Shown here: positions 132 through 64,000 of the stretch, piece by piece
Layout of the letters: each line of letters begins with the position of its first letter
Position numbering within the stretch: position 1 is the stretch's first letter
Assembly: GCA_905178155.1 (NCBI GenBank)
Contig: CAJINV010000020.1
Span: 434,001-498,000 of the forward strand
Length of the DNA: 64,000 nt
Reading direction: 5' to 3'
Origin: Amoebophrya sp. A120
Taxonomy: Eukaryota > Protista > Dinoflagellata
Translations under genes and position numbers: made by a program
Notes under the pieces: model-generated
The model's database searches: none
What the model was told of the DNA's origin: nothing
The model's input: the letters and a program-made list of their open reading frames with translations, nothing else

Positions 132-2377
132 ATGGCGATGACCACGAAGCAACACAGCCGAAATGCGGCACTGAGGCAAGAGGTAACGCTATCTGCGGAG
201 GAGGAAAAAAGGGCCAAGGAACTGTACTTTGTTTTCATGTTGATCGCAGTCCGTCATGTGCTTGATGTTTGTGTTTACCCTTCGAACGTAATGAATACGA
301 GCACTGGGATATTGTTATCCCCCCATTGTTCCAATGGATTTGGTATTATCCGAAATGAAATACTCACTAGATTCGGCGTGTACGACTACGATAAATCAGA
401 CAGCGTATCACCTGCAAGTGAGCGTCAGGGAATCGGAAGAACTTTTCCTTTAAAAATTTGTCCTCTTGCTACTTGTTTTACTATGCATGGGCATGGGAAA
501 TGAGTTCGTGCCATGGACTCATTTTCTTTGTTTAAGCTAAGCTTTGTGTGCGTATTCTGTTCTTCCCATGGAACGGTGACGCCTATTTGCATTGCATACA
601 CTATCTCACCGGATGAGATGCGCGATCTTCTCACCGAGTTGGGCTTCAACATCGCAGACGAGTCCATCACACTCGTAATATCACAATACGGTACATCTTT
701 TGTTGGACATTTCAGCTGAGGACTTTTTTGCTTTTCAAGAACTCGGAACAAATACCAGTATTGCAGCGCAATTTCACCAGCCAAGTGTGGACATCAGAGT
801 AGAAACTCAGTTTTCTAGAACGATGTTGATGCTAGTGCTGTTTTGTCTATAGCGATGTCAAAGATCTTGATCTTCACTGACCGACAACAGCTGCGGATCC
901 TAACAAAGTGACTTTTGCGGAGTTCAAGGGAATATACGTGGAATTCCTCGCCCAAATGCCGTCCGCGCTGAGGAAAAAGAACATGGCCGGAGCCTGCCGA
1001 CCATGCGTAAAAATACAATTAATTGGCTACCACGCTTTTTGTTTGCGAACGTTCTTGTATGGATCAACGCCAGGCTTTTACCGGTCGTGAAACTAGCGAT
1101 TTTTTTTTGCCATGATTCGGAGGGTTTGATGGCATCTCATCTGTTTTTGAAAAATCTATCAGCATCAAGACGTATACTTCACGGAAGCGAGTTACCGATC
1201 CGCGTTATCAAATTGATGCAAATGTGTCAATATCTACTTGGCTAGGGTAAAAAAAAAACCTCACTTAGTGGCTGCAGAATCAAAAACAGGCCGTGAAGCA
1301 GCTGCACCCATGCTAAGGCGCTGCATTGTGACATCATTGCATATTTATGTAATTTATTAGTATCTTCTGCATGTAGTTAGATGCTTCCCTAAAAAGAGCA
1401 GAAGATCTTCGAAGTAGTAGTGGTGCAACTTGTTCGGTGGAGAGCACGAGTATCTTGCATTTTTCCCGAGGCATCAAGTCAGAAACGACACTTGCAGAAC
1501 AAGTCCATAACTCTTCAAGGCGTACGACTTCGATGCAAGCGGCACGCTGGAACGATCGGAACTGAGTGCGTTGCTGTTCGATCTCGGTATTGATTGACGT
1601 TTATCCCATCAGTTTTGATGCAGCATATCGTAATGTTTTTGTTTATGTTTTTGAATACTATCCAGAGAACCGAAGCGTGACTACCTAAATCGCAAAAGGT
1701 GTACACATCCACTTTTTCCGAATTATATACCAGGTATGCCAGACGTTTACGGAGACAATTACAGCACGCTAATGGACGAGGCTTTCTCTGTGGTGGACTG
1801 GGATCACTCAGAATCGCTGGACTTCCAATATAACCCGCTCAGGTGTTACAATCTCAAACGTTACAATAGAACATAGAAATCTGTGATGCAAGAGTGCATG
1901 ATCTAGCCAACTCTCATAGGATTGTGCATGACAAGTTCCGGAGCCCCAAACATCACTACAATCTGGCGAAATTTGTATTGCAAAAGGTGGAACGCTGTGC
2001 GAGCCTGTCAAGCTCATCATGCAACACAAAGTCCAAATTCTATTGTAACGTTTGAGATTGTAACGCTTGAGCAAGTCATATCCAAGAGTTCTGCCAGTTT
2101 ATCAACGAAGTGATCCGGTATGTAGAGGACTTGCGAGAGTCACAAACTGTATCCAAGAAAAAAACACCATCACAATCACTATTGCACATTTTTGCAATAC
2201 AAAAATTTTTGTCATGCGCAAAAATGCATCACAGTCAAGAGTTATTGGCGATTTCCCTTTGTGTTTTTGCAATACAAGAAAAATTTGGGATGCGAGAGAA
2301 ATTTCTGATGCAAAACCTCCTACATGTGATTGTGATGGTGTTTTTTTCTTGGATAAACTGTGCAGAAGGTGTACTAA
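132..2377 (+). CDS. Calmodulin-like EF-hand protein (multi-exon, not visible as one ORF)
   Basis: Spliced EF-hand loops YDYDKSD(T/S)(I/V)SPDEM, YDFDASGTLERSEL and VDWDHSESLDFQEF, plus a degenerate loop DPNKVTFAEF. Needs removal of IEs at 406, 1829 and 2150 and GT-AG introns. Stop TAA 2375-2377. Exons between ~1005 and ~1510 are unresolved. Confidence 0.75.
406..598. mobile_element. Old introner element (non-canonical intron)
   Basis: TIR tatcacctgcaagtgagcgtca / tgacgcctatttgcattgcata. DR decayed (cagcg/cacta). Removal +5 nt rebuilds a 12-residue EF loop. Confidence 0.7.
1829..2080. mobile_element. Introner element, family E
   Basis: Long TIR containing gttacaatctcaaacgttacaatagaa. Perfect DR tccaa. 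Splice gives LDFQ|EFCQF. Confidence 0.9.
2150..2355. mobile_element. Introner element, family D
   Basis: TIR tatccaagaaaaaaacaccatcacaatcac. Perfect DR aactg. Confidence 0.9.
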
Positions 2378-3578: not shown

Positions 3579-6228
3579 ATGTCCAAAATGAACAAGGCGA
3601 ATGCCATGCAGGCGCTGGCTCTGACCCTGTCCGTATCAAATTGAGAACAACAGCTGTTGCTCCCGTCCCTGCATCCACGTCCTCTCGTCGTGCCGAATGT
3701 TGAATAGTAAACGCTTCGTCCTCTCCTGCAGATGTGATAGTGTCATCTGCAGAAAGGTACGGAGAAAAATCACGGGGAAATGAGAGAAACAAGTTCTGGT
3801 TTGCCATGATGCATGAAGAGCCACCGTGCAGTGGTTGATCTCGCCCTGTACCATGTCGAGCTCCTTGAATAAAGCTGTAACATCAAAAATGTGCAATCGC
3901 AGGGTGAGGCTGCGAAACCGCAAAGACAAAGTTGCACAGAGCTCCTATGCCGCCTGACGCCACGGTGGCCTTCTGAATCATGGCAGCTGAAAGGAGACTA
4001 GAAAATAAAGCTTTGTTCATCTTGCATGTCTACTCAACTCTACTGCATCGATTGTATGCACCTATTTCAACATCCGGACGGGCGGGACGTAGATTGCACG
4101 GGGAGAGGATCACTGTAGTTCTCACTTTGATAGCCTCTTTCTGGAATGCCGGGCGGCGTGGACCAGATGGGGCCCGCGGCCGTGGCCGGCCGGCTGCTCC
4201 GTGGTGACACTGAAGCGCAAGACGACGCGACCACGACGGGAACCGTGCCGAACACGCGCTCCAGCCTGCTGCAGAAGAAGAAAACGAAGGCCAGCACCCT
4301 TATCGAAAAGAAAGTGCGCAGCTCCAGTACTAGCCACCTTCGTTCTGAAAAAGATATTTAAACGCAAATCTTCACTTGTTTCAAAAAGTCGTACAGGCAG
4401 GGCGACCGCGAGCACCTGAGTTTGCATAGAAGTGTTGCCCCCTATTCCTCGAAATTAGTACCGTCAACACTGGGTCCGTGTCCGTGAAACCTTTGCATTA
4501 TCTACCTGCTTTGGCATATAATCTTGAGCGAGTGACTGTGGTTTTTATCGGTCGAGCTGTGCACCTTTCTTTGTGATAGGCTTGAAGCAAAAGACTGCAA
4601 AAACGGGAGAGCAGAAAACCAAGACTACCACGGGGAAGAAGGAACAGAAGCAGAACCTGAATCAAAAAGCCAACTTCCCCTCGTTTGACTTCGGGAGTCT
4701 CAAGGAGAAACTTGACAGTCTCAAGGATGCAGCCGGGAGCGGAATCTCGTCTGGGTTCGGGAAGGTGAAAGACTGGGCCCAGGAGAAAGCCGGGCAACTG
4801 ATGGAGCACGCCGCGGCGGCGAAGGATGCGGGTCTCGAACAGGCGAAGGAAAAGACGGAAGCATTGAAGAATCTGGCCGCCGAGAAGTCTGCGGAACTGG
4901 TGGAACAGGTCAAGGAGCTGAAGGACACGGCGATCGATCAGGCGAAGGAAAAGACGGAAGCGTTGAAGAATCTGGCCGCCGAGAAGTCCGGGCAAGTGCT
5001 GGAACAGGTCAACGCGCTGAAGGACACGGCGATCGATCAGGCGAAGGAAAAGACGGAAGCGTTGAAGAATCTGGCCGCCGAGAAGTCCGGGCAAGTGCTG
5101 GAACAGGTCAAGGAGTTGAAGGACACGGCGATCGAACAGGCGAAGGAAAAGACGGAAGCGTTGAAGGATCTGGCCGCCGAGAAGTCCGCGGAACTGGTGG
5201 GAAAGGCCACGGAGCTGAAGGACACGGCGATCGAACAGGCGACGGAGAAGGCGGAAGCATTGAAGGATCTGGCGTCCGAGAAGTACACGGAGCTGAAGGA
5301 CACGGCGATCGAAAAGGCGACGGAGAAGGCGGAAGCGTTGAAGGATCTGGCGTCCGAGAAGTCCGCGGAACTGGTGGGAAAGGCCACGGAGCTGAAGGAC
5401 ACGGCGATCGAACAGGCGACGGAGAAGGCGGAAGCATTGAAGGATCTGGCGTCCGAGAAGTACACGGAGCTGAAGGACACGGCGATCGAAAAGGCGACGG
5501 AGAAGGCGGAAGCGTTGAAGGATCTGGCGTCCGAGAAGTCCGCGGAACTGGTGGGAAAGGCCACGGAGCTGAAGGACACGGCGATCGAACAGGCGACGGA
5601 GAAGGCGGAAGCATTGAAGGATCTGGCGTCCGAGAAGTACACGGAGCTGAAGGACACGGCGATCGAAAAGGCGACGGAGAAGGCGGAAGCGTTGAAGGAT
5701 CTGGCGTCCGAGAAGTCCGCGGAACTGGTGGGAAAGGCCACGGAGCTGAAGGACACGGCGATCGAACAGGCGACGGAGAAGGCGGAAGCATTGAAGGATC
5801 TGGCGTCCGAGAAGTACACGGAGCTGAAGGACACGGCGATCGAAAAGGCGACGGAGAAGGCGGAAGCGTTGAAGGATCTGGCGTCCGAGAAGTCCGCGGA
5901 ACTGGTGGGAAAGGCCACGGAGCTGAAGGACACGGCGATCGAACAGGCGACGGAGAAGGCGGAAGCATTGAAGGATCTGGCGTCCGAGAAGTACACGGAG
6001 CTGAAGGACACGGCGGTCGAAAAGGCGACGGAGAAGGCGGAAGCGTTGAAGGATCTGGCGCAGGACGCAGCGGTGCATGCCGGCGAACTTGTGCAGGAAA
6101 AGGCTGGGAAGGTCAAGGAAATGGCGCAGGACGCGTTGCAAACCGCAGGCGGGAAGGCCTTGGACACCGTCAAGGCGGGGATCGAAGCCGGAAAAGAGAA
6201 GGCCAGTGCGTTAGTCACCCCCCAATAA
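3579..6228 (+). CDS. LEA/apolipoprotein-like 11-mer repeat protein, possibly secreted
   Basis: Exons 3579-3633, 4138-4300 and 4584-6228 join in frame after IE removal (MSKMNKANAMQALALTLSV|SGMPGG...ASTL|KQKT). Body is A/E/K/T-rich 33-aa and 26-aa helical repeats. Confidence 0.75.
3634..4132. mobile_element. Old, long introner element
   Basis: TIR tatcaaattgagaacaacag / ctgtagttctcactttgata. DR decayed (gtccg/gcctc). Frame restored by removal +5 nt. Confidence 0.75.
4301..4578. mobile_element. Old introner element
   Basis: TIR tatcgaaaagaaagtgcgcagctc / gagctgtgcacctttctttgtgata. DR decayed (accct/ggctt). Frame restored. Confidence 0.8.
4835..6060 (+). repeat. Coding tandem repeat: 99-bp units, then ~5 near-identical 177-bp (99+78) units
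   Basis: gaactggtgggaaaggcc recurs at 5191, 5368, 5545, 5722 and 5899. Confidence 0.95.
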
Positions 6229-8539: not shown

Positions 8540-11500
8540 ATGTCTGCTCCCCCCAAGAACATCACAGAGGAACAACCTACTTTGTCTGCTTACGCCGGTG
8601 CGTACCGTGGTAGCGAGGCTCTGATCCGGTACCAGGGCAACCTGGAGAGCGGCGAAGTACGCACGGCGTTGAAGGATCCGTATGCGGAGAGGAACGGGAA
8701 GGTTGACCCCAGTCAAAACTTTCTGACCGTCGCAAACGTGGCCCAGGGCCTCGGCCGGGAGAGAAACCTCTTTGAACAGGAGTTTTCCAGCAAATCCACT
8801 TTGATGCAACAGCGGCGCGCAGCACAGAATGCAGCCGGCGAGGACCTCCAAGGAAACAAGCGATTTGAGGCGGCAGCAGCCAGCGCCGCAGCGACAGTGT
8901 GGGCGGGGAAATCCGTGCAGAGCCGGCAGTCCACGCCGCTGCTGGCGCACTTCCACGGCACCAGCATCGGGACTGTGGCGACCGGCTGGAAGCAGTACCG
9001 CCGCGCAAGCATGCTTGCAGGTTATCAAATGTAAAAATGTCTGGGTCTGGAAGGATGCAGAGATTTGTGATGCGGCTTTGGCATGACCCCTAATGTCTGT
9101 GATGCATGCCCTAGCATCACAGATTTTATGAGGGCTTCCTGCTGATGCCTATACCGCATGAGAAATGCCCCCTCGCCGTCGCAAAAACTGGACCTCTTTT
9201 GCTGTTCATGCAATGCAGAATTTTGTAGAATCCAAATGCAGCATCACAAGTTGCATCCTTCCAGACCCAGACATTTTTGCAATCCATACAGGTCCCGGAT
9301 GCACGATCATTTTCGACGGCGAGATGGACCACAACAAGCGCGCTCTCTCTACGGTTGCAAGCGTCGAGACTTTGCCGTATTTAAGGATGCCATAATTTTA
9401 AGTTTTTTTTCTGATCTTGATAAAAGTAAAACTCAAACCACGACTTTCACCACGACCCCTCGCCCTTGTATTAGTTTGCTTTCTTTCGTAATTTGAATTT
9501 CGTCTCACGCTAAAAATCTGCCTTTACACGACAGGCCTGCGACGGAGCTTCCCGCGGATCCAGATCGTTCTCCATCCCCGGCAGCGCCGACGCAGGACGG
9601 GGTGCTACTTGCTACTAGTCCGATCGCGGAGCAGTTACAAGACCCGGAACATCATCAAGATCAAGACCGGGACGTCAGTTGGCTGCGGGGGCCCCGACAC
9701 GACCAGCGGAGCCCTTCGCCGCGTCCCGTGCCGGAGTACATCCGCAGTAAGACGCAGAGCTGGTACAGGAAGGTGATGTCGCAAAAGGAGCTGCACCAGT
9801 GGTACGGCGGCGATCCTTACGCGCCGAGTCACCACGTGCGCCTTATGCATTGCAAATATGTCTGGGTCTGGAAGGTTGCAACTTGTGTAAAAAAACTTCT
9901 GATTCTATAGATAGCATCACAATGTGATGCTATCTCGGGACTCTAAAAAAATCTGTGTTGCATGACCAGCAAGAGGAGTCCAGTTTGTGCTACGCGGAGA
10001 GGCCATTTCTCATGCGGAGTAGGCATCAGGATCAGGAAGCCTTCTAAAGATCTGTGATGCTACGCCATGCATTACAGGTGTCGTGGGTCATGGAAAATCT
10101 GCATGACAAGTCTCGCAACCTTCCAGACCCAGACATTTTTACATTTGATACGCCTCGAGAAAAGCCCAAACCGGTACCGCGATTTGCCGCACTCCGTTTT
10201 CTACACCAGCACGCGGTCTGCCGCGCAAATGCGCAGTCCCCGCGCCACCCGGCCCGGCGCCGTGGTCGCGCGGTCGCACGTGCCGCTGCACACGAACCGC
10301 AGGTCGCAGAGCCCCGCGGCGCTGGTGAAAAGCACGCGACCCAGCCAGGTAAGGAAGCATTACGACATGACAGCGGATGTGTCACTCTCCCAAAACACCG
10401 CAAAGCTCGCGCGGGACAACCTCCCGCTCGCACGACTCGTGCGGGGACGCGATGAGGAAACAGGCGACCGGATCCAACAGAGCCAGGAGGAGATCCAGCG
10501 GATCATTGCTGAAGCGGCACCCTTGCTGGAGATCTACAAAAACAAAAAAGCCCCGGTCTTGTCCCGCGTGGCGCCGCAGATGGGAAAACCGGATTTATCT
10601 GCCACGGTGTATTTTGAAGAGGGGCGGGAGCAAATTCCGGAGGTTTTGAAGGGGCAGTGCGGGGAGGAGGAGCAAGAAGAATGGGACCGGCGGGTGGACG
10701 CGTATGGGTACGTGAATGCCGAAGTGTATAACCAGTGGGAAAACAAAGCGGACGCGTATTTTAAGGATTTGGGCAACAGTGTCGTGACGCTGGATGAGGA
10801 CCAGGGTGCGGAAGAGAAGGGTGGTCCTGAAGATAGTATGTTTACTGCCACACAGACACAGGAGGAGCAAACATCAGCTGGAAAGAACTTCAACAATAGC
10901 ACCGGAGGTGGTTTTTCGAATAAAGTGAAGGAATTCACGGACCGCGGGCCGGAGTACGAGTGCTTGCGCATTTGGAAGCCTGCGCAAGAGTTCAAGTATC
11001 CGATCACAGACAGAGCGGCGGCGAAAACGAAGAAGCCCATAAATTCCGCGCCGTTCAAGCGGCCCACGCAGGTGTCCCCCAGGTTGGAGGGCGCGGCCGC
11101 ACCGCAGCTCCGCACGACGGAGCGCGCCAGGGCTCGTAAAGACGCACGCAGCCCGGAAACGAGGTTGCGCGGCGCCGTGCCGGCTCTGGACAGTAGTAGT
11201 AGACCTCCAGCACACGACGTCGAGCAGCAGGAGCGGAGCCGCGCGCCGAAGCCGGCCGTTGGTGGCACTCCGAAGCAGGTGCTTGCAGCGCGACGGTTGG
11301 AGCGAGAGATTGGTACTAGTGGCGGGTCGGCGCGGGCGAATATGATGAATAAACCTCCTCCTAAGGTAGTGGCGCCGATGCGGGCCACCGTGTTGCACGG
11401 GCGGCACCAGGTGGGGCGGAATTTTGCGGGGAAAGAGTTCAAACTGCCCTACGACGTAAACCGTTACTTCCGGACGGAGGAGACGCTGGAACAGCGCCGC

Positions 11501-24400: not shown

Positions 24401-24536
24401 TATGGAAGCGTCAGGACCGAAATCAACAAAATGGAAATAAGTAATTTGCGATGCATAAAATCGATACCAGTGGGAGCCTCAGTTCCGAGGTGGCGCATGA
24501 CAAATTTCGGAAGTAGCACTAAAATCCAGTCTGTCA
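24401..24536. mobile_element. Truncated introner element, family B
   Basis: Left TIR tatggaagcgtcagg and interior collinear with 18289-18418, ending abruptly at the GC-rich motif. Confidence 0.8.
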
Positions 24537-41246: not shown

Positions 41247-41265
41247 TCTCTCTCTCTCTCTCTCT
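41247..41265. repeat. (TC)n microsatellite
   Basis: Direct observation. Confidence 0.85.
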
Positions 41266-48000: not shown

Positions 48001-51000
48001 NNNNNNNGGCTACTACGATAACGGGGCCAACGAGTGCCTTCTCAAGGAGTGCACCTGCCCGGGCGGTGGCGTTGCCAACGATGGGACCGCCTGCCACGAA
48101 AATGGCGAGGTAAATTGCAAGAGCTGCACCGCTGCAAATTTTGCCGTTAACCCCGCTACTAAGGATTGCGAGTGCCAAGACTCCCTAGGGTTTTACGAAG
48201 ATAGCAGTGGGGTTTGTGCGCAGAAGACTTGCGTCTGTGATTTTGGAGCTGCAGCAACAGGAACCGATTGCCCGAGCAATGGCGCGCAGCAATGCATGCC
48301 GGTTGCTACCTGTGAAGACGGCTACTACCTGAATAGCAGCACGGGCGAATGCGAGGAGAAGCAGTGCACTTGTGCGAATGGGATAGGGAAGACGGGCAAA
48401 GAATGCCCAACGCACGACGCCCACGACTGCGCTTCGTGTACGAACAACTACGATCTACTCAACTACAAGTGCGACACCTGTTTGCCTGGATTTTACGAGC
48501 CAAGCGGCCCTGGAAACGGGTGCGAGCTGAAACAGTGCACCTGCCCGGGCGGCGGTACTAGCCACGAGGGGACGGCGTGTCACGAGCACGGGGAAGTTAG
48601 TTGCGACAGCTGCAGCAAGGCAAACTTCGAGATCGACCCGGTTTCCCGAGATTGTGTCTGCAGCGACGCCTCGGGCTTTCACGAGGATGCCGCGACGGGG
48701 GCGTGCGTCGTGAAGACTTGCGAGTGCGAGTTCGGGACCGCGGCCACGGGGCAAGAGTGCCCCATATGTGTTGCAAATATGAGTCTGGGTCTGGAAGAAC
48801 GCAACTTGTGATGCAAATTTTATTCAGACAACTCAAAGATCTGTCATGCATGAACAGCGAATGCGGCCGAAAATAACCTGGAACCAATCTACAGGATTTG
48901 CCATGCAGATTAGCCGTGATTGTTGGACAACCTTCTCAAGACGTGTGAAGTAGATGCTAGGGCGCCTACTTGCATGCCAGACCTCTCCTAGGTGATACAA
49001 GAGCTGCAGTATGGCAAAGACCTGCGTGCACACACATCCAGATCCAGATCGATATTTGCAATGTATACCCCAGTGACGGGGCCGACAAATGTGTGACACC
49101 CTGTGATACCGGGTACTACCTGAACGGCGACACGTGCGAGGAGAAGGAGTGCACGTGCGCGCACGGCGTCGGGAACGTCGGCGCCGACTGCGCGACCCAC
49201 GACACAATCAGTTGCGAGTCCTGCGACGCGGGGTACCACGTGAGCGGGGACATTTGTGCGGTGAACATTTGCACGTGCCAAAGCGGGTTGGGCACCACCC
49301 TCACCGACTGCGCGACCCACAACACCCCCAGTTGCGCGCTGTGCAGCAAAGGGTTCCACCTGGACGGGACGGGGGCCTGCGTGGAAAACGCCTGCACCTG
49401 CGCCAACGGCGTGGGCACCACGGGCACGGATTGCGTCACGCACGACACGCCCACCTGCGCCTCCTGCGACACCGGGGACAACTACGTGTTGGACGTCGGC
49501 ACGCAGCGGTGCCTCTGCAACGACGCCACGGGGTACTACCTGGACAGCACCAGCGACACCTGCAAGGAGAAGCAGTGTACGTGCGTGAACGGGGACGGTT
49601 TTACCGGCGCGGACTGCGCCACACACGACCGGATCCAATGCGAAACCTGCGACGCGGGCTACCACGTCAGCAACGACGTTTGCGCAGCCAACATCTGCAC
49701 GTGCCAGCACGGGCTCGGCACCACGCTGACCGACTGCGCCACGCACAGCACCCCTTTCTGCGCGCTCTGCAGCAAGGGCTACCACCTGGACGGCACGGGG
49801 GCCTGCGTGGAGAACGAGTGCACCTGCGACCACGGCGTGGGCACCACGGGGGTGGCTTGCGTCACGCACAACACCCACAGCTGCGCGTCCTGCACGGCGA
49901 CGAACTACGTACTGGACGCCGTCGTGGAGCGGTGCGTCTGCGACGACGCGAACGGCCACTACACGACCAGCGCCGGGGCGTGCGAGGAGAAGCAGTGCAC
50001 CTGCGCGAACGGGCTGGGTACCACGGGCACCGCGTGCACGACGCACGACACGCCCCAGTGTGCCTCGTGCGACGCGGCCACCAACTACGTGCTTGATGTC
50101 GCCTCGGAGAGCTGCGTGTGCAACGACGCCACGGGCTACTACCTGGACAGCAGTAGTGATACCTGCAAAGAGAAGCAGTGCACCTGCCCCAGCGGGGTGG
50201 GGAGAACCGGCGCGGCCTGCGCGTACCACGACGCGATTCGCTGCGAGTCCTGTGATGCCGGGTACCACCTGCACGGGGACACGTGCGCAGCCAACATTTG
50301 CACGTGCCCGAACGGGGTGGGCGCGTCTTTAACCACCTGCGAGACCCACGGCGAGGCCAGCTGCGCCGTGTGTAGCTTTGGGTACCACCTGGAGCAGAAA
50401 GCCTGCGCGGAAAACGTGTGTACGTGCGCCAACGGGGACCCGACCACGGGCACCTCCTGCTTCGCCCACGGCACTCCTGGGTGTGCCAAGTGCAACGAGA
50501 GCCTGGGTTATTTCTGGGACCCGATTTTCGGGTGTGGTATTCGCGAGTGCATTTGTCCCAACGGGCAGGGGAAAACCGGAATCGACTGCCCCAACCACGG
50601 GGACCACGAGTGCGCCAAGTGCGACGAGGGCTACGATTTGGACCAGGCCGTTTGTCACACCACGACCACGACGACCACCACGACGACCACATCGAGCACC
50701 ACGACCAGCAGCACTACTACCACCACGTCCACCACGACGGTCACGAGCACGACGACCACCAGTACCACGACGACGACGAGTACCACCACCACGGTGACCA
50801 CGAGCACCACGACCACCACCAGTACGACCACCTCCACCACCACCACAACCGCGGCCGGGTTCGCCAGCTTGGCGATGGAAGGAACCTTTTCCGCCCCCGA
50901 AGGCGTGGATTTGTCGACGGATCAGGCCTTCCTCGAAGCCGCGATCGCCTCCATCGCCGCCGTGCTCGGAATCGATCCCTCCGAAGTGGTCGGTGTTTCC

Positions 51001-54000
51001 TTCGAGCCGGTGCGGAGGAAGAGAGATCGGCGTCGTGCGCTGGTGGACGAGGGGGAGGAGGGGAAACATGACGTGTTCGTTAAAACAAGTGATAGAAATA
51101 GTTTCTACTTCTACAACTGGCTGTTCGCACCGTGGTCTACTTCTTCGACGGCGCTACGACGGATGTTGACCTCCTCCTCGGGCAGCAGTTCCTCCGCGGG
51201 GCAGACCTTCCGCATCACCGCCACACTGGCCGTGGACGACGCTTCCACCAAAGAAAAAATCGTGGCGGCCACCGCGGACAAGGACGCGCTGGCCGCGAGC
51301 ATGGCGACCACCATCGCCACGGAGGCTGCCGAGAAGGTGCCTGGGCTAAAAGTGGAGTCCATGGCCGTGGACACGAGCGCGAGCGACGGGTTTCTGGCCC
51401 CCACGAAGACCGGGGCCGGGTTCGCCAGTCTGGCCATGGACGGGGTTTTCCGTTCGCACGTCGAGCTAGCGACCAGCACGGAGTTCAAGACCGCGTTCAA
51501 AGGCGCTGTGGCAACCGCACTGGACGTGAACGCCACCGCGGTCATCTCTAATGTGGAGGTGGTCAGTACGCCCCCGCCGCCGAGCTTCAGCATAGGCGTC
51601 ACGGTGACTAACAACAACGCGAACGCGGCCACCCGAATGTTGCGCATGCTTATCAAATCTGCAAATATTTTTTGTCTGGGCTGCTGGAGTACATGACTTG
51701 TGATGCGGAGTCATGCATGAAGAGGGGTGCTGCAGCATTTGCATTTCTAGGTGCAGCGGAGCAACATGCCAGGACCAGGTTTATTTCAGAATTCTCTCTA
51801 CTTGTTTGCAGTGCGCCTGCTCAGCACTGAAAACTGTGCACGGCTGCATCAGATCAAATACGCTGCTCTCTTGCCGGTCATGCAACGCATTACAGACTTT
51901 GATTTGTTTCCTGGAGTGGCAGACAAGCAACACTAGTTCCAACTAAGTATTTCCCGGAGAGCCAAGACATATTTGCACTTGATAATGCTGCGGGGCCTTC
52001 TATTCTTCGCAAGTGAAGATGCTGACGCTGAGGACGAGGTTGCTGGAACAACAAGCTATGCGGATGAAGCAGCTGCAGCACCCAGAACAAGAAATCTGGG
52101 GGTAAAAACGTTCCACCACCTGGAAATCAAAACCGCACTGAACGTTCCCGAGGACGACGCCGCGCTGCGCAACAAGATCATCGGCGCGACCCGCGACGCG
52201 GCCACCTTTTCCACCAAAGTGTCGAAGGCGACGACACTGGCCATGCCGGCCGCGGAAGTGTACTCCTTGTACTTCAGTGCCACGAAGAGCGAGGGGTTTC
52301 TGTCCGAGACGCGGATCGCGGCCAACGCCCCCCCGCCCTCCTCAGTGGAGGAGGACAACAACTTTGGGCTCATTTTCGGGGCGGCCGCGGGCGGGGTTTT
52401 GGCTCTTGCCTTCGCAATCGGGTATTATTACCTGGCGAAAAAGAAGAGCAAAGAGGGCGACCAAGACAGCGAGCAGGGTACCGCGACCAGCAGCAGCTAC
52501 ACCACCGCAACATCTTCTGCGATTTTTTCCGCGGAAAAGGCGGAAAGCAAGCTCAGTTCCGAGCACAAGTTTCCCCCGCACCTGTTTCAGTGGAAGCCGC
52601 CGATTGTTCCCGCCGAGGAAACCGAGTCCGAATTCTCGAGCCAGGACACCAGCCTCTCCTCCCACCCGGCGCCACATCAGCGCCACGAGTACGCCGAGAA
52701 GTGGCGTGCGTATCGCGAGGGGCTGCTGCGCCCGCCCGCTTCTAAGGCCACGCCAGATCAAGAGGGTCGTGCCGAAGGAGCGGAACCGCAGCAAGGGGCG
52801 GCCACTGGAGCTGCTGAGGAGAAAAATGGGCAGTGGCTCCGCCGGGGCGGCCGGTGGTGGTTTCGCCCGGACCATGAGCAGCACTTGGAGCGCGAGATCA
52901 GAGCAGCGGAGGAAAGCAACCAAGTAGAACAACCAGCGGTAGCGGCCCAGTCAGCTGTGTCTGAGTCAGTCAGCCCGGACGGAGATAATCACGACCAGCC
53001 CCCGACTCCACCGACGGAAGCAGAACTGGAGCGGAGCAGCGCGACGAGTAGCAGTTCCTCCACCGAGGAGCCCGCGCTACGCGTGCCCACCTACGTGCGG
53101 CCAAAACCGCGCGAGACCGTGACCGATCCCGCCGACGTGCACCCGAGTATACATAGCGACTCGTACGTCGCACCGCTCGACCCCTCGCACTTTTTCGAGA
53201 GCGCCATTGCGTACACCACCGCCAATCAAGATGCGCTGCCCACTAGTCGGAAGTCCGTAGAGCGGTTCCACGCGGACCGCAGCGCGAATATGCTGCGGCT
53301 CCTGGACGAGGCGGGGGACGGCAGTTATCAAGTGTAAAAATGTCTGGGTCTGGATCTGGAAGAATGCAAGTTTGTCATGCTTGTCTGGCATGACTCTTAA
53401 ATCTGTCATGCACATTACCAAAGAGCCTCACTCTTCTGTCATGCAGAAACGCAGTTTGTCATGCAGAATAGGCAACACCTAGAAGCTCAGAAACTTGTGA
53501 TGCTGCGCCAGCATTTGTGGCGTCATCATGAGAGGCCACCCAGCATCACAAGTTTCCAGACCCAGACATTTTTACTTTTGATAGCAGGCGAAGGAGCACG
53601 ACGAAGCGGGTGTCGCTGGCCGGGGAGCGGAGCGTCGTGCTAATTGGTGACACGGATGAGGATATGCATTGCAAATATGTCTGGGTCTGGAAGAGTGTAA
53701 ACTTGTCATGCAGGCTTCCCATGACCTTGAGGTCGGGAATGCGGGACCTAGCATGAGCATGACAGAGTTTGTGAGGTCTCTGCCGTGCCTATCCTGCATG
53801 AGAAAGTCCCTCCAAACCTGGTCGAAAGTGGACAGCTTTTGGCACTCGTGCAACACAGATTTCTGCATGATTCGGCTTTGCGGCCCCCTCTTTTTCGACG
53901 CGTTCGGACTGAGGATTGTTCCGCTTGGCCTAAGCAGCATCACCTCAGGCTTCCAGGCTTCCGATTTAGCATGGCAAGTTGCAATCTTCCAGACGCCGAC

Positions 54001-57000
54001 ATTTTTGCAATCCATAGAGGAGAGTACGGGTTCGAAAACACAGAAAAAGTACGACCCCGACGCACTGTCCCTCGATGCGGTGGTAGTGGAGCGCCAAGGG
54101 TCGTCCGATGAGTCTTCGGAGGACGGAGCAGCTGTTGAAAAGAACAGGAACACCACCACGGAAAATGACATGCTCGCCCCGGACGAGGTCGCAGAGCTGG
54201 AACAGCTGCAGCGCCCGACGACCTCCGATATGAATGACTACATTCTGGCCAGCATGGCGCACACCGTTGTTGACCACACGCAGCACGTGGACTACAGCCA
54301 CCTCAGTGGGTTTTTTAACTACAACTTCAACGAGGAATATCGCAAGAAAAAACTGTTTCACTGTGAACTTGTGATGCATAGAATGGAACACAGGACTATT
54401 TGTCTTGCTACACCTACAAGACCTTGACTCTTTAGTGGTGTTTTCCCATTGAAAGCGCGCACCATGGCAAATTTTCTGTGTCATGTGTAACAAACTTGTG
54501 ATGCAGATCTTGCAAAATGATCACAGTGAAACAGTTTTTTCGTGGGATAAGGAAGAGAAGCACGAGCCCTCCGAGGACGGCGTTACGGTCGCCTCGATGG
54601 TCCAAAGGAAAAAGAAGCGGCGCAAGCGCCGGAGCAAAAATCGTGCGAGCGAGAACAGTATGATCACAGTGGAGAAGAATGTGGTTCTCGACGGCGAGGC
54701 CGCGAATAGTGCGAATGGCGCATTAGCTTTAGCTGCTTCTGGGAATGCGGAAGGAACAACTGACGAAGCAGTAGTAGATCAGGCCGAAGGGAACAACAAT
54801 TTGTCTTCCACACGCCGCACATCAAGTACCGCTGCGCAAGTCGCCGCGGCGCCCTTTCGCTTCTTCACGGGGGGATTTTCTTCTCTGCTACTACGAGGAC
54901 CTGGGAATATTAATGGATCTGCGTCTAGTACTTCTGCGCCGTCGAAAATAAAGATCGGCGCAGCTACTAGTACAACTGCCGATGAACAAGTCGAAGCCCC
55001 CGCACTTGAAGTCGAAATGACCGCTGCCGCAGTCGCTGACGACGTGCGGAGCGCTGGGTCGTCCTCTGGTCGTCGCGCCGGCACGGCTGCTGCACCAGGG
55101 GATAATGCACAAGAAAGGACATCAAGCGGCGAAGTAGATTACGCGACGGCAACAAGTCCGGGCAGTTTGGGTCTGGGATCATTCGAGTTGGCCATCGTGG
55201 ACGAGAAGTCTCCCAGCACGGAAGAAGTTTCTGGAGAACAAGCCGATGTTGCAGATGCACCTACAACGCCGACGTCGATACTAGACGTTGCCCTGTTGAC
55301 CACAGGAGCGGCACCTTCTGCTGGCGAAGGGGCCGACGCGCGTATAGGAGAACAAGAACCCACCTCGCTGTTTGACGGTGGATATCTTTCGTCTTTTGCC
55401 GCGTCAGCTGCACAGCAGGTACTAAACATCATGGATTTTTTAGAGCCGTACACATCAACAATAAATGACACCTCCAGAACCTTTTTTCTCGATGAGGTTG
55501 CTTGTGCCCTGTTCAGCGCAAGATGATGGGACGGAACAAGATAAGAATTACGCAGGAGAGCACGTTCTTGCATAGGCTGTGGCCAGCACTTCTGCTAAGT
55601 CGACCGATGCTTCTGTAGTTGACCATGCATCTTCGACCACTTTCATCTCAGTTGTATGTGTATCCAAACTTGAAAAATTGAAATCACCACTTCTATAACA
55701 GGTGGAGCAAAAATCCGAACCGGCTCAAGAAGCTACAGCAGGCATTGCGGTTGTACCAAATTTTCCGTCGGTCATGGACAAGGTGGAACCTCCTCCACCT
55801 CCGGACGACAATAATATGGACCCGGCGCAGTTGGTTTCGGTCCTGGTGATTCCGCCATCGGAAAGTGAGAAGCCTTCGGACAGCGAGAAGCCAACACCGC
55901 GGGAGGGCGTGGGGGCAGCGCCCTCGTGGACGTCGCCAGACGCGGTAATATCGCCATGGCCTTGGGCCTCTGTACTGCAAAAGTCATCTTCGGCAGAAGA
56001 TCCTGAGCAAGTGGAAGTAGATGCAATGGGAACTACGGATCCCACATCAAAAATCTGGAACCCATACGACACGGTCCCCGCGGTAGATCTGACATACGGA
56101 GGGTTATTTTTGCCCACATCTACTACTACCCAGGAAGTACAAGTAGAGACACAACAAGACGAAGAAAATAAAGAGAACTACGCCGGCACAGCAGCGATAG
56201 AAGACGTCGTAGTACTCGAAGCTCCAGAAGGAAAACAAGACACTGCAGCTACCTCTACGCAACTGGACAATAACGTCGACTTTATGTCCCTCCTGGTCTC
56301 CAGTTTCGCCGCATCGCTCGTTCCCTCCTCGACGGATTCACCGCAGGATGAACAAGCTGATAGAAATAAATCATCCGATAATTCCAAAGAACCTCCGAAG
56401 ACGTCCGCTGAAAAATCAGTGGCAGGAGACGAAGCAGAAGTTGTGCAACAAGTAGATGGCCCTCAACTCGGCAGCAGCAGCAAGAAAAAGCTGAGCAAAA
56501 GTGCGGCCGCGTTCACTACCACTCTCCAGTCCGCCAGCTCGACCGGCGGCGCGCGCTTGCGACAAGCCGCGGGTGGCATGAGGAAGCTCGTGGACGCCAC
56601 CGCCGCCCGTGCCTTTAGAAGGTCCTGGGTTATGGGGAAATGGAAGACCTCCACGGAGACAGAGGATAGTTCTGCGAGAGTAGAATTACCGACGGAAGAT
56701 CAAGATCAGATCGAGAGTAGTCTGACAGTGGAAAGAATAGGCAAGATTAACGCAGAGGGTGGAAACAACGGTACCGCTTGTAGTTCCCTGGATGGAGCTC
56801 CTGTTCTTCCTGAACAAGTAGAACTAGCGTCGCCAACAGTTGCTGTCCCTGAAGATTATACTAATGGTCGTTCAGTGCAGGGGGAGGCTGTTGCTCAGCA
56901 AGAGGTGCGGAGTGATGTGCCGTCGTCCACGATTTCTCGAGCAGATGGTGCCACGAGGACCAGTGCTGATGTAGAAGGCGCTCCAAAAAATGTGGGAAGC

Positions 57001-59078
57001 TCTTCTACTGCACCTGCTGCTATTGGAAGTGCGCCACCAACCTCGGAGAAAGACCGAGTTGTAGTACAGGAAGAAGATGTTGGCTGCACTACTAGTTTCG
57101 AACTAGGACAACAAGCTGCCGAGGTGGAAGTAGCAAGTCATGCAACATCGAACAAAAGTACGGCTGCTCTTCCTGCTGTGCCCTTTTCAACATCAAGCGC
57201 AGATTTCTACACTTCCTCCTTTTACAACTACCCGACCCTGCTTTCTTCTCCACAAAAGGACGAGGAGCCCGATCTTGCTGCGCTGCAACAAGAGAATGGT
57301 TCTCCGCCACTGCCGGAAGCTGCGGAGAGTGAAAAAAGCCGAAGTTGTAGCACTCCTGGCAACAAGAACTTGTCCAGCTCTCTTCAGCCGTCATCAAATG
57401 AGAAGGTTGTAGTGCCGGAAGGTGAGGCAGCCAGTTATAATTTCCCGATGGTTCTTGCTACGTCCACGTCGGAAGTTGTACATCTAGAACAAAACGCGAT
57501 CAAGATGTCGACCCCTTCGTCTTCAACCGCGCAACAGAACAAATCGCAAACACCTCCTGCTTCAGAGCTACCGAAAGCGCAGGGAGGAAATTATTACGGC
57601 GGAGTTACGAATAACACCTCCACCGCAGTTGAACCAAGAAAAGGAACAACGGCCAAACAACCTGAAAATAAAGTTCAAGTGGCACTGACGATGGAGAATC
57701 TGTATAGCATGTTCGACAATGGGGGAGCTGGTCTACCTCCGGTAACGCAGAGCTACGCTACAAGTTCCGCTTTTGACCGTGAACATGATCATGATGTTGA
57801 CTCGGTTTCGCTCGGTTCTCGCAGTCACGTCGGAGTAGAGCAAGACGACAGCGTGGCGAAGTTGCGCGAGTATCTACGTGCGAACGCAGGCCAGGCAGTT
57901 GCGTCTAGCACAACTCTTGCGAGGATGAACACGACCAGCAATAATAAAGCCGCTGCACGGGGCGGCGCTACGGAAGAATCACAGCAGCATCCTACCAAAG
58001 GGTCGTCGTCGTGGCAAACGTTTGGCGACGCAGCCGAGCAAGGTCCTCGAATATTAAATCCTGCGAAAAGTAGCGCATGGCAGCGCGATCCGCGCAACGG
58101 TAAGTGGATAGGGAGAAGCGGAGCTGAAAGCGAGTCCCGCTACTCGTCCACCTCTCGCGGGTATCCGAGGAAAAAACGTTGTTAGTGTAAATTTGTGATG
58201 CGCAACATGCAAGATGATTGCGTCTGTCATGCTTGGCATGCATCGTAGGGTCCATTAAAGGGCGTTTTCGCGTGCTATCTGCGCATGGCAGGTTTTTGCT
58301 GTGATGCCAGGCAAATTTGTAATGCTGTTCCTCCGAAAAAGTTACACCTACAAGGCTTTTTTCTTGGATAGCGGGCCGGGAAGCAGTGCCGCAGGTCGTC
58401 CCAGGACCGAAGATTCTTTCTCGCAATATTGAGAGGAAAAATCCCCCCTCCCCATATCGAAAAGGTATGTTTCCAAAAATTTGTGTTGCGGAATTGAGGT
58501 CACAAATCACCTCTGTCTTGCAAGAAGGCAAACCCAAAGAATACGCCGCCTTACTTATACAGGCGATTTGTAATGCTGTTTCACCTACATGGCAGGCCTC
58601 TCTTATGCCAAGCGCCTACAACAAAACACCCCCACGCAGGCTGAGGCTTTGCCTGTAGTGCCTCGCTGCAAGACAGGGCTGATTTGTGTACACAAATCCA
58701 GCAACAGAAGTTTCCGTTTCAATATGGGGAGGGGGGATTTTTCATTTTGATACGCAAAGATCGGTCCACAGTGGACGGACAAACAACAGCACTACTTCGG
58801 GTGCAGCGCAACACCGAGGCAGCTCTATCGAGGAACTGCGCTCCCGGCTGATGGGAAGAAATGGCGGCACAAATTATCTCCCCGGGGTCGCCGAACATCA
58901 ATCGGGGGAATCGGAATCCTCGTCCCGGCGACACCAGTTTGACGAGGATGATCTTCGCAGTGACTGGTCAGATACCCATACCGAGGATATAACCAGCGTG
59001 GATACCAGGTCGGGCGCCCCGGCCGCCGCGTCCGTCTTGGGCAGGATAAAAAACTTCAATCGGCAGAGCAGATCATGA
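42054..59078 (+). CDS. Giant cysteine-rich type I membrane/surface protein (~4400 aa)
   Basis: Signal peptide, dozens of CxC...C..C..GY repeats, Thr stalk (50658-50850), polybasic RRKR, TM helix (52363-52434) and a long low-complexity tail. Frame is continuous after removing 12 IEs and GT-AG intron 55497-55701, except across the N gap. Confidence 0.8.
42749..43027. mobile_element. Introner element, family A
   Basis: Perfect DR acctg. Splice GTC|DDGYHL. Confidence 0.92.
43363..43721. mobile_element. Introner element, family A (diverged)
   Basis: Ends tatcaatggcaaacat / atgtttgcaggtgata. DR ggtac/cgtgc. Splice HGT|TGTSCAVHD. Confidence 0.82.
44639..44917. mobile_element. Introner element, duplicate of 42749
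   Basis: Appears identical. DR acctg. Confidence 0.92.
45253..45609. mobile_element. Introner element, duplicate of 43363
   Basis: Same ends and DR, several indels inside. Confidence 0.82.
46291..46531. mobile_element. Introner element, family D-like
   Basis: DR acggt/acggg. Empty paralogous site at ~47530-47570. Confidence 0.88.
46534..47907 (+). repeat. 1017-bp-period coding repeat
   Basis: 46534-46890 matches 47551-47907, ending at the gap. Confidence 0.9.
47908..48007. other. Assembly gap (100 N)
   Basis: Run of N within the repeat array. Confidence 1.
48765..49067. mobile_element. Introner element, family A
   Basis: Perfect DR cccca. Splice ECP|SDGADKC. Confidence 0.9.
51651..51984. 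mobile_element. Introner element, family A (diverged)
   Basis: Perfect DR atgct. Confidence 0.88.
53326..53583. mobile_element. Introner element, family A
   Basis: Family A TIR. DR gcagt/gcagg. Confidence 0.9.
53663..54016. mobile_element. Introner element, family A
   Basis: Perfect DR gagga. Confidence 0.92.
54338..54549. mobile_element. Introner element, family D
   Basis: TIR ...gaaaaaactgtttcactgtga. Perfect DR aggaa. Confidence 0.92.
58162..58370. mobile_element. Introner element, family D
   Basis: Perfect DR gcggg. Confidence 0.9.
58427..58752. mobile_element. Introner element, family C
   Basis: Collinear with 29167. Perfect DR cgcaa. Confidence 0.92.
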
Positions 59079-61750: not shown

Positions 61751-64000
61751 ATGAAAAGAACGGTGTTGAGCTCGGTGCTCGCGCCCAACAGTGGCGCAAC
61801 GACCGCCGGAAGTAGCGGGTCGTCCTCGTCCTCCTCTTCGAGCAGCGCTGCTTCTTCGAAAGAACGCCCGCGAGGAGCGCTGGCGGACAAAGCAGCCAGT
61901 GCGATATCAAATGCAAAAATGTCTGGGTCTGGAAGAATCTAGCTTGTCATGCTAAATCTGAATCATTCAAAAATCTGTGTTGCATGATTACCAAAAGCAG
62001 GCCACTTTTGACCTAATCGAGAGGCAGTTTCTCATGCAGGATAGGCATGATAGAACTCTCACAGAATCTGTCATGCTATGTCCTACATACCAGACCTCAT
62101 GGGTCATGGAGAACCTGCATGACAAGTCTGCATAGCAGTCTGTAGGTCTTGTCGCAGGAGTCAGCATTTTTGTTGCTGCGCTCCTGGTTTGGCTTTCTAT
62201 ATGTTTTGCGAGTAGGAATTGTTGGCTAAGGTTGGCGAAATTTGGCAAAGTGGGATATGTTGGCGTGAAGTGTGTTGGAATCGTGGCCGGGAGATGATGG
62301 TGATGGCACTTCGGTGTCCGCCTGACCTACCTTCCCTGCGTGACAGCCATCTGCGGCCGTTTACAAAGGGGGAGGCAAAGTGTGCCGCACTGCTGTTTAG
62401 CATGACAAGTCTGCATTCTTCCAGACCCAGACATTTTTGCATTTGATATGCGACGAGTTCTTTCAACCTCAGCGCAGACGAGGTGAAAACGTACGGGAGT
62501 CGGTGGTTGAGCGAGATCCCGTATCAAATGCAAATATGTCTGGGTCTGGAAGATTGCGAGATTTGTCATGCTAGTTTGGTATTATTCTGCAGTCTGTATT
62601 GCGTGAGTAGGAAGACGAGCTCCTCTTGTCTGTCATGCAAAGCCGCTCTTTCTCATGCGGAATACGCAACACAGAGCCCCCACGAAAAAACCTGTCATGC
62701 TTGGCGGTGCATTGCAGCGTGCTTACTATTCACCGACATGCATCACAAGTTTCCAGCAGACCCAGACATATTTGCAACGCATATCCCGATCCAGAGGAAG
62801 GGGGTCCTTGGCCGCGGCGGCTGTGCGATTGTGTGGCTCGGAGCCATATGGATTGCAAAAGTGTCTGGGTCTGGAAGATTGCAACTTGTCATGCTCAATC
62901 CGAATCATGCAAAAATCTGTGTTGCATGAGTGCCAAAAGCTGTCCACTTTCGACCAAGATGGGAAGGAGTTTCTCATGCAGGATACTAGGCATGACAGAG
63001 ACCTCGCCGACTTTGTCATGCTAGGTCCCGCATTCCAGACCTCAAGGGTCATGGAAAACCTGCATGACAAGTTTACACTCTTCCAGACCCACACATTTTT
63101 ACATTTGATAAGCCAGTACAGACGGACAGTTATTTGCCGTGAAGCAGGTACAATTCTAAAACAACTGATGATTTTTGTGCGCAAGCAAATTGAGTTTGGT
63201 ATACTGATCTGATCGTCCTTAAAGGCCTTCTTTATCCTCAACGTCATTACAATTTTTTGACGGGCCTTCGCTCTGTTAAGTACTTCGTGACACCACGACG
63301 TCGTTTTGTAGGGCGTTATGCGACTTCTGCTTTATTCTTTGTTCATACATACGTATTTGCAAAAAACTCTTACTGATACTGATAGATACAACGAACTCTA
63401 AGGTGAGCAAAAGCGTATTGCAGCGTGGCGAGCTGGTGCCGCAGACCGGGTCGCAGCTCCGGGGTCTACTGAAAGAAGTGAAAATTCTTCAGAAGCTGGC
63501 TGCTTCTACTTCAAGGAGCAATAAAACATCAAGTTCTACACAATCAGACGGTCAACAGCACGACTACGTATCAGCAGGAACAACCACAGCGAGCTCCTCG
63601 CGGGACGACCATGGAGATCTTCATGACCACCACATCTGTCATCTTAGGGCTTTTGTGGAAAGCCGCAGCGACCTTTGGATCGTGCTGCAGCACGGGGGTG
63701 TGCCCATCAGCCGGGAGCTGTACGAGGTGAAGGGCGAATTCCAGAACAGTGCGCGTGTCTACCGCGTACTGCACGGTCACTTGATGGAAGCTTTGAAACT
63801 ACAGGACCACCATGGAGTACTAGAGGGTAGTTCTTGCTCCTTCCACACGCTGCGCGATTTCTTGCGGCAGCTCTTGTCTGCGTTCGCGTTTCTGGAGAGG
63901 GAAAGAGTCGTGCACGCGGATGTGAAACCTGAGAACGTGCTGATCGACCCAGATATCGCATGCCAATATGTCTGGGTCTGGAAGATTGCGAGACTTGCTA
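61751..64000 (+). CDS. Ser/Thr protein kinase (partial, continues beyond the window)
   Basis: After splicing: VLGRGGCAIVWL, FAVKQ|VSK, LKEVKILQKL and VVHADVKPENVL. Four IEs plus GT-AG intron 63148-63402. Start uncertain. Confidence 0.85.
61905..62448. mobile_element. Introner element, family A with internal insertion (544 bp)
   Basis: Perfect DR tgcga. Extra segment 62134-62399. Confidence 0.9.
62522..62783. mobile_element. Introner element, family A
   Basis: Perfect DR tcccg. Confidence 0.92.
62847..63110. mobile_element. Introner element, family A
   Basis: Perfect DR agcca. Confidence 0.92.
63954..64000. mobile_element. Introner element, family A (left end only)
   Basis: tatcgcatgccaatatgtctgggtctggaag at the window edge. 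Confidence 0.85.

Follow-up and report, generated by a model that had tools for sequence, protein, structure and literature searches.

Nearly a fifth of the window – a 64,000-nucleotide stretch of the Amoebophrya sp. A120 genome – consists of non-coding, transposon-like elements, several of which are skipped in the transcript contigs of the genes they interrupt. On a curated list the complete elements number 44, span 130-544 nt and occupy 11,928 bases (19%); all start with TAT, finish with ATA and are terminally inverted repeats. They are the A120 introner elements of Farhat et al. (2021), and the class is already known. The initial annotation saw in them non-autonomous transposons that duplicate 5 bp of target and act as non-canonical introns, a reading that the pair scan, a second assembly and transcript contigs all bear out. 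As to their removal, we favour, with a probability of about one half, a cut-and-join process acting on pre-mRNA that measures the hairpin, like that of the nonconventional introns of Euglena, and that operates apart from GT-AG splicing.

The elements and their direct repeat

Two partial elements, one reduced to its left part, at 24401, and another cut by the end of the window at 63954, bring the inventory (Table 1) in line with the 45 or so first proposed. Interior clustering resolves at least nine families, against at least seven anticipated, with ten window elements as singletons. A scan for TAT..ATA pairs with at least 13 of 20 terminal positions complementary recovered 27 pairs with perfect 5-bp repeats, compared with 0-1 in each of five block shuffles. 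Most elements lie in coding sequence, much as the initial annotation claimed, with elements 22852, 24207 and 41676 as possible exceptions. That removal of the element plus 5 nt restores the frame also held: 37 of the 44 junctions then lie in open frames of at least 100 codons, versus 26-28 when 3, 4, 6 or 7 nt are taken. The rebuilt CDPK matches the annotated A120 protein at every residue, and a CDPK exon is 100% identical to a protein annotated in A120, which fixes the host strain.

Terminal inverted repeats, a duplication of fixed length, dispersed families and the lack of a transposase gene together mark the elements as probable MITEs. Element bins reach a sequencing depth of 1e4-1e5, single-copy sequence having about 30, and the folding z-score is below -2 in 37 of 39 elements. 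On each side, 197-212 of the 222 ends have adenine at positions 11-13, under a search motif that itself favoured A-runs. No family shows an orientation bias (largest 62:46, p=0.15), and the 5' and 3' ends relative to transcription are alike in composition.

The length of the direct repeat is sharply defined. In the second assembly it is perfect over 5 bp in 269 of 356 elements and over 4 or 6 bp in none (0/356); among 39 non-duplicate window elements the two copies agree at 5/5 positions in 28, 4/5 in 6, 3/5 in 3 and 2/5 in 2. The repeat has no consensus across elements, as had been noted, and a suspected central A/T target preference (126/268, p=0.13) was dropped. The initial annotation added that with repeats such as CCCCA no register gives canonical ends; over all registers, a GT/GC-AG or AT-AC reading is open to only 2 of 39 window elements. 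The GT/GC...AG ends of U2-type spliceosomal introns are lacking: at the register inferred below GT-AG occurs in 0/39 window elements, and a count of 9/183 (p=0.44) shows no enrichment. Old elements show no drift towards GT or AG; a GC/AT drift test showed nothing, and a G-direction test gave a weak signal, with p=0.04 for the second assembly and p=0.09 after pooling, results that tell against the hairpin route favoured here.

Table 1. Elements and host genes in the window. Rows are complete elements unless stated; "repeat" gives the agreement between, or the letters of, the two direct-repeat copies.
Position	Strand	Feature	Evidence
406..598		old, repeat 2/5, in EF-hand gene	frame restored by removal of element +5
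1829..2080		repeat TCCAA, in EF-hand loop	pair scan
2150..2355		~207-nt family	pair scan, clustering
3634..4132		old, repeat 2/5, in LEA-repeat gene	
4301..4578		old, repeat 2/5, in same LEA-repeat gene as 3634	
9023..9288		~262-nt family	pair scan, clustering
9844..10150		~262-nt family	pair scan, clustering
17354..19722	+	CDPK host gene	annotated A120 protein (516 aa) recovered once two elements and a GT-AG intron are taken out
18289..18596		~311-nt family, repeat 4/5, in CDPK	rebuilt protein
18649..18910		~262-nt family, in CDPK	rebuilt protein
22852..23010		old, repeat 2/5	
24207..24357		~150-nt family	pair scan, clustering
24401..24536		~311-nt family, left part only, ends at GC-rich 34-nt repeat	
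25985..26264		~279-nt family, in galactokinase	skipped by transcript contig, record arithmetic
26871..27184		~311-nt family, in galactokinase	transcript contig skips element (+5)
28904..29148		repeat 4/5	left base 2 kept in transcript contig
29167..29487		~322-nt family	summed skip in transcript contig
29543..29862		~322-nt family, orientation opposite to 29167	skip by record arithmetic, clustering
30345..30574		~230-nt family, repeat 4/5	left base 2 kept in transcript contig
32358..32568		~211-nt family	pair scan, clustering
33029..36830	+	host gene, part	8 elements and 3 GT-AG introns missing from the transcript contig, which has an open frame of 385 codons
33428..33696		~262-nt family	transcript joint skips 274 nt
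33769..33999		repeat GGCTG/TGCTA	joint 33764-34001
34085..34346		~262-nt family	transcript joint skips 267 nt
34414..34674		~262-nt family, orientation opposite to 33428 and 34085	266 nt skipped at transcript joint
34717..34925		~207-nt family	transcript joint skips 214 nt
35425..35633		repeat CAGAC/CCGCC	joint 35423-35638
35699..35851		153 nt	transcript joint skips 158 nt
36231..36611		degenerate, repeat 4/5	joint skips 386 nt
36836..37089		~262-nt family	pair scan, clustering
37137..37266		~150-nt family, at stop codon	
41676..41861		degraded, probably non-coding	
42749..43027		~262-nt family, in cysteine-rich repeat gene	
43363..43721		old, repeat 3/5	
44639..44917		copy of 42749, within 1890-nt tandem duplication	
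45253..45609		copy of 43363, within 1890-nt tandem duplication	
46291..46531		repeat ACGGT/ACGGG	empty paralogous repeat matches right base 5
48765..49067		repeat CCCCA	
51651..51984		repeat ATGCT	
53326..53583		~262-nt family, repeat 4/5	pair scan, clustering
53663..54016		~262-nt family	pair scan, clustering
54338..54549		~211-nt family	pair scan, clustering
58162..58370		~211-nt family	pair scan, clustering
58427..58752		~322-nt family	pair scan, clustering
61905..62448		~262-nt family, carries ~283-nt insert	
62522..62783		~262-nt family, in kinase gene	pair scan, clustering, Pfam
62847..63110		~262-nt family, in kinase gene	pair scan, clustering
63954..64000		left end, cut by window edge	

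Removal from transcripts and the register of the cut

Evidence of removal comes above all from the gene at 33029..36830, in whose covered stretch all eight elements are skipped – none is retained – by exactly the element plus 5 nt, in one spliced contig from each of four runs of a single sample, the RNA nature of the runs being a tool's guess and the listed carriers of the locus including no run registered as RNA. None of the eight joints is GT-AG at the inferred register. Both orientations of the ~262-nt family are spliced within this one gene. Six further elements (25985, 26871, 28904, 29167, 29543 and 30345) are skipped, one by abutting pieces and five by record arithmetic; elements 18289, 18649, 22852, 24207, 32358, 36836 and 37137, in or bordering the covered stretches, have no joint among those listed and bear neither way. 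Since the data are contigs rather than reads, and from one sample, a register used only rarely would go unseen. Of the raw RNA runs, X9 gave 45 matching reads and X10 gave 2, all of them on repeat ends, and neither bears on the locus.

A hairpin between short direct repeats is a classic substrate for template switching by reverse transcriptase, and the contigs are derived from cDNA. The skips could then be artefacts and the real mRNAs could keep the elements, but we consider this the least credible of the explanations. Skipping is exact even where just three of the five repeat bases match, three being enough, and the contigs drop to zero depth in several bins within elements of the 33029..36830 gene. 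Stops stand in all three sense frames of 32 of 39 elements. Moreover, the alignment of the rebuilt CDPK with the A25 protein runs ungapped through both element sites.

A critical issue is where within the repeat the cut falls. At element 33769 left base 1 and right base 5 survive in the transcript, which places the cut at or before base 4; at element 35425 left base 4 survives, which places it at or after base 4. Left base 1 is also retained at element 36231, and left base 2 at elements 28904 and 30345. A cut after base 4 is the only register that fits all five, and the intron is therefore likely to be N-TAT...ATA-NNNN, bracketed by two elements in one sample and presumably general; the upper bound comes from the joint at 33769 together with one paralogue hint (46291). 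The spliced product is thus a single chimera, 4+1, of both repeat copies. Of 58 mismatches at bases 1-4, 39 have the left copy as the likelier by codon usage likelihood (p=0.012; 13/17 at base 4 alone), the count at base 5 being 4:6.

This chimera bears on whether the elements are lost from RNA or from DNA, alternatives that the initial annotation had left side by side. Were they excised from DNA in the transcribing stage, like the internal eliminated sequences of ciliates, mRNA would never contain them; their transposon-like ends and precise removal suit such a scheme, and a minority of empty sites may lie among the 1620 joint rows of the DNA run beyond those listed, repeats having flooded the table. 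Yet single-copy DNA contigs, at a depth of about 25-30, continue into the elements and retain them, and one crosses 36231-36611 without a break. A symmetric transposase should, moreover, leave behind one repeat copy intact, the left or the right, or else two alleles, whereas only the 4+1 chimera is seen. To our knowledge no separate somatic nucleus exists in this group. DNA excision is on these grounds very unlikely, and RNA splicing is favoured.

The published splice ends of A120 call for comment. All nine leading splice pairs in Table S4 of Farhat et al. start with NT (PMC7789003). A simulated aligner that slides towards gt-ag/ct-ac gives NT in 66% and AN in 78% of cases, versus 69% and 68% as published. 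The 'diverse' published ends are thus reproduced by sliding, and we rejected the NT starts as support for the register. The 30 of 60 rows covered for strain A25 gave no sign either way of a shared geometry.

Possible routes of removal: a hairpin ruler or an altered spliceosome

We suggest the following sequence of events. An integrase-type transposase supplied in trans would insert the element; the 5-bp duplication without target consensus is observed, the enzyme supposed. Once transcribed, the element is predicted to fold into a long hairpin that would bring its ends together. Distance from the base of the hairpin, rather than flanking letters, would then set the cut, as two elements bracket it. 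A cut of 1+4 nt equals the 5-bp duplication; host mRNA would therefore be restored in either orientation, and elements could spread through exons at little cost. In the predicted ensembles of three spliced elements (35699, 36231 and 35425) the terminal TAT/ATA pairs do not form, which counts against a hairpin route.

The inferred register gives introns that start N-U-A, as do the GUA donors of the host, and a spliceosome fits this as well. A close rival, which we hold to be quite possible though short of even odds, is accordingly an altered U2-type spliceosome working without U1 snRNA. The hairpin would replace U1/U2AF bridging, TAT would supply U+2, A+3 and U+4 of a GUAU-like donor, an A of the closing ATA, some 7 nt from the end, would act as branch point, and neither G+1 nor the terminal AG would be read any longer. 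T and A do stand at intron +2 and +3, and seven of the eight listed, correctly placed GT-AG introns start with GTA; the U+2 match is weak, since only six registers exist and two place the canonical base by chance. Farhat et al. found nearly all spliceosomal proteins in A120 together with U2, U4, U5 and U6, while U1 snRNA was not found (PMC7789003), and a review describes an adapted U2 spliceosome for Fritillaria. Against an altered spliceosome, G+1 and AG are unenriched though both vary freely, the donor and putative branch A would lie buried in a strong predicted duplex, and the element ends lack 5'/3' asymmetry.

Returning to hairpin measurement, we tentatively propose, at somewhat less than even odds, its wider form: a third, sequence-blind route of mRNA splicing in Amoebophrya, in which a spliceosome-free hairpin ruler removes N-TAT...ATA-NNNN, has converged on the geometry seen in Euglena, and licenses transposons that duplicate 1+4 nt to occupy exons whichever way they point. 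On that view the 'unprecedented diversity' in print would be one rule blurred by aligners. Such a rule, which concerns the removal of about two thirds of this parasite's introns, would replace thousands of seemingly random splice-site pairs and would explain why 5-bp-duplicating elements in particular fill exons. The rule specifies where the excised RNA would begin and end, so that junction reads telling circles from lariats can be looked for directly.

Pfam identified no nuclease, ligase or transposase in the scanned window and second-assembly ORFs. The 53 ORF stretches scanned in the window yielded no transposase, as in the initial annotation, and no integrase or transposase appeared in 63 ORFs from loci of the second assembly, a chosen subset of 523 window and loci ORFs of at least 150 aa. 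No pointer to a transposase came from the two elements above 700 nt whose repeats are perfect, L023 being the one examined; an Rfam search returned nothing, and the inverted-repeat pattern had 0 matches in viral contigs. The mobilising enzyme, held at the outset to be unresolved, was thus not found here, but the literature already offers a lead in A120 family 38, whose label reads 'Ginger, 5-bp TSD, TA/TA termini' and which has Copia-like homology (PMC10045372; PMC12130899). Because a coding element was not found in our data, the superfamily is not assignable.

Comparison with known systems

Farhat et al. described A120 introners with a TAT + 7 nt + AAA inverted repeat, repeated families, direct repeats of 3-5 nt with a border given as 'unknown', and genome-wide RNA support for non-canonical removal (PMC7789003). 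The present elements carry TAT, 7 variable bases and at least three A, with a border repeat of 5 bp. As the host is strain A120 and the motif is the one described, the identification made in the initial annotation is exact: organism, inverted repeat, short direct repeat, families and RNA-supported removal are the same, and nothing differs in kind. Family lengths likewise match file sd07 of Gozashti 2025 (about 150, 209, 260, 278, 305 and 320 nt). In contrast to the published account, the present data give a single repeat length of 5 bp throughout and bracket the cut after base 4. The exact duplication, the cut bracket, the tolerance of orientation and repeat mismatch, the lack of GT/AG enrichment, and the aligner account have no match in the literature compared.

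Among transposons, IS3EU/GingerRoot share the TA..TA termini common to all 44 elements but duplicate 6 bp, a length at which 0/356 repeats here are perfect; the 5-bp duplication falls within the range of Ginger2, a group with an integrase-related DDE transposase (PMC10045372; PMC12130899). The introners of Micromonas and Aureococcus and the non-canonical introns of Fritillaria are also MITE-derived and restore the target on removal; there they keep canonical or specific splice dinucleotides, whereas the elements here show no constraint on intron +1 or the last four bases.

In geometry the elements resemble the nonconventional introns of euglenids and diplonemids (PMC12501133, PMC12621601, PMC3935182), in which terminal pairing sets the ends and leaves a short 5' and a longer 3' stretch unpaired, as is likely here, and in which, as here, direct repeats are slidable and a MITE-like origin is indicated. 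The Euglena geometry is 5'-N3CDG...CH'G N5-6 (PMC12501133), and according to two reports these introns leave as circles (PMC11282704, PMC12621601). The unpaired ends measure 1 and 4 nt here versus 3 and 5-6 in euglenids, the motif is TAT/ATA rather than CDG/CHG, and the lineages are unrelated. If removal in Amoebophrya is non-spliceosomal, it would constitute an independent parallel to euglenid nonconventional splicing.

Elements, hosts and direct repeats

About 45 terminal-inverted-repeat elements had been claimed for this stretch by the initial annotation. A scan for complementary ends found 27 TAT...ATA pairs flanked by perfect 5-bp direct repeats in the window, compared to 0–1 in each of five shuffles; relaxed scans combined with reading of the sequence gave 44 complete elements (130–544 nt, 18.6% of the window) and two partial ones, in line with the claimed number. 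Interior sequence divides the window members into nine families, with 10 of the 39 scored elements as singletons. Hosts include the genes for a CDPK, a galactokinase, a second kinase and a LEA-repeat protein. Stops occur in all three sense frames of 32 of 39 elements. Excision of the element plus 5 nt (element+5) places 37 of 44 junctions within open frames 100 codons or more in length, as against 26–28 for other lengths, and the frame restoration originally proposed thus holds.

That the elements are already known, as had also been suggested, is well confirmed. The CDPK exon matches an annotated Amoebophrya sp. A120 protein at 100% identity; the protein rebuilt without its two elements equals that annotated protein and aligns, free of gaps over both element sites, with the protein of A25, another Amoebophrya strain. 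In the available part of Farhat et al. 2021 (PMC7789003), the ends of A120 introners read TAT, then seven variable bases, then three or more A, and direct repeats of 3–5 nt accompany them. Protein identity and end description together therefore equate the window elements with the published ones. The same part of that paper calls the border position unknown and reports that neither a transposase nor a U1 snRNA was found for A120.

A pattern scan of metagenome contigs (the listed matches all being JACKZZ01 contigs) revealed the same families in at least 166 loci, 551 kb with overlaps, of a second assembly that may or may not be strain A120. Among the loci listed, 269 of 356 inverted-repeat pairs shorter than 700 nt, collected without use of the direct repeat, carry a perfect 5-bp repeat, and none carries one of 4 or 6 bp; no target consensus was found at the insertion sites. 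Codon score gave an orientation to 183 of the 330 elements that had sufficient flanking sequence; in these, together with 39 window elements, no family favours one orientation (largest 62:46), and left and right ends do not differ.

Several further features are collected in the table. The tandem duplication is either recent or a misassembly, the GC-rich repeat may belong to a different mobile element or mark a join in the assembly, and the GCATGACA-like motifs are possibly candidate transposase binding sites.

Features of the window and of the second assembly (loci with the prefix L)
Feature	Position	Observation
GC-rich 34-nt repeat, palindromic core, four copies	21081, 22404, 23454, 24537	Missing from the 166 second-assembly loci listed; inverted-repeat-like TATCAAAT before 2 of 4 copies
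Element 24401	from 24401	Ends abruptly exactly at a copy of the 34-nt repeat
Interval between elements 28904 and 29167	29149–29166	
Example of element interiors	34085–34346	Many short GCATGACA-like motif copies, both directions (by eye, uncounted)
Element 36231, covered in full by one contig of the presumed DNA run	36231–36611	
Degraded, probably non-coding element	41676–41861	Reads GT...AG in the inferred register, perhaps by chance
1890-nt tandem duplication	about 42086–45865	In cysteine-rich repeat gene; two elements copied along; 1232 of first 1250 bases identical between copies
100-N gap	47908–48007	After the tandem duplication
Insert of ~283 nt	62118–62416	Inside element 61905; bounded by 16-nt direct repeat; stops in all six frames
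1104-nt element	L023:505–1608	Perfect 5-bp repeat; interior made up of short GC-rich repeats
C-5 cytosine DNA methylase domain	L020:2–1090	

Removal from transcripts and position of the cut

Removal as non-canonical introns was the central proposal of the initial annotation, and four contig sets from a single sample agree with it. Their RNA status is a guess, not on record; we read them as RNA because GT-AG introns are skipped too. In each set one contig omits all eight elements of the interval 33,400–36,700, each skip measuring exactly element+5 nt; three GT-AG introns are likewise absent, and joining leaves an open frame of 385 codons. Transcript contig pieces abut exactly across the site of element 26871 (handles give element starts), and record arithmetic accounts for five further elements as skipped. 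Altogether, skips could be read for 14 of the 44 elements. Two raw RNA runs did not include this locus. Elements 28904 and 29167 are just 18 bases apart, and a 13-nt micro-exon must therefore stay between two hairpins, with which the summed skip is consistent. In the presumed DNA run contig depth is flat, near 25–30, one GT-AG intron is retained, and contigs run into elements; excision at the DNA level fits poorly, and we judge it very improbable.

The junction is hidden by perfect repeats and visible at imperfect ones. Transcripts carry the left-copy letter at repeat base 1 (33769, 36231), base 2 (28904, 30345) and base 4 (35425), and the right-copy letter at base 5 (33769). Assuming one register, only a cut after base 4 satisfies these letters: the intron, if that register holds, is N-TAT...ATA-NNNN, the upper bound being thinly supported. 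Codon likelihood at mismatches prefers the left copy at bases 1–4 (39/58, p=0.012) and gives no clear preference at base 5 (4:6); an empty repeat paralogous to that of 46291 matches the right-copy letter at base 5. GT-AG occurs at the inferred register at chance level (9/183 oriented elements of the second assembly, p=0.44). Repeats with a mere 3/5 matches are still skipped exactly, which rules out repeat homology as the signal. Template switching, which would yield apparent skips, is likewise a poor fit and barely credible.

Relation to published splice ends

Gozashti et al. 2025 (PMC12130899, of which we compared all 58 A120 rows of file sd07) give for the largest A120 family starts of GT 27%, CT 19% and AT 16%, and ends of AG 27% and AC 21%. 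Simulated sliding of our elements within the repeat toward gt-ag or ct-ac produced GT 31%, CT 20%, AT 10%, AG 30% and AC 28%. On the part of that source available, the published spectrum is therefore what would be expected from 5-bp repeats of random sequence when an aligner seeks motifs, and does not report the true register. In the accessible portions of the literature found, a fixed register is stated nowhere; Roy et al. 2023 and the figures of Farhat et al. could bear on the point. The available text of Farhat et al. 2021 (PMC7789003) places the most frequent A120 repeats 4 nt upstream of the inverted repeat, which may in part reflect such a register. Fixed register, strict 5-bp duplication and aligner explanation are refinements on known elements, and make the splicing mechanism directly testable.

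Routes of removal and spread

Predicted folding falls far below shuffles (z < -2 in 37 of 39 elements), with outermost hairpin pairs predicted in some elements and not in others. The elements are indifferent to intron +1 and to the last four bases, work in either orientation and have identical ends, all of which points to a cut whose position would be measured from the base of the element hairpin. A dedicated cut-and-join route is our main reading, to which we give a probability of roughly one half. Removal by an altered spliceosome is a close alternative, somewhat less probable in our view; in its favour, T and A fall on intron +2 and +3, as in host GTA donors, and the A120 spliceosome is nearly complete in the available account of Farhat et al. 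2021 (PMC7789003). For the dedicated route, the nonconventional introns of Euglena offer a comparison: these are 5'-N3CDG...CH'G N5-6, in overall shape like N-TAT...ATA-NNNN (PMC12501133, as far as available), and are reported as circles in the accessible parts of PMC11282704 and PMC12621601.

Spread of the elements is likely driven by a putative integrase-derived transposase acting in trans. None was recognised among 53 ORF stretches scanned in the window, as initially annotated, or among 63 selected ORFs of second-assembly loci, and two ORFs of the 1104-nt element have no Pfam match. The TA..TA ends of the A120 elements recall IS3EU/GingerRoot, but IS3EU/GingerRoot duplicate 6 bp and the A120 elements 5 bp; Ginger2 duplicates 4–5 bp (PMC10045372, as far as available). 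A120 family 38, in the available part of Gozashti et al. 2025 (PMC12130899), is labelled Ginger and combines a 5-bp duplication and TA/TA termini with Copia-like homology.
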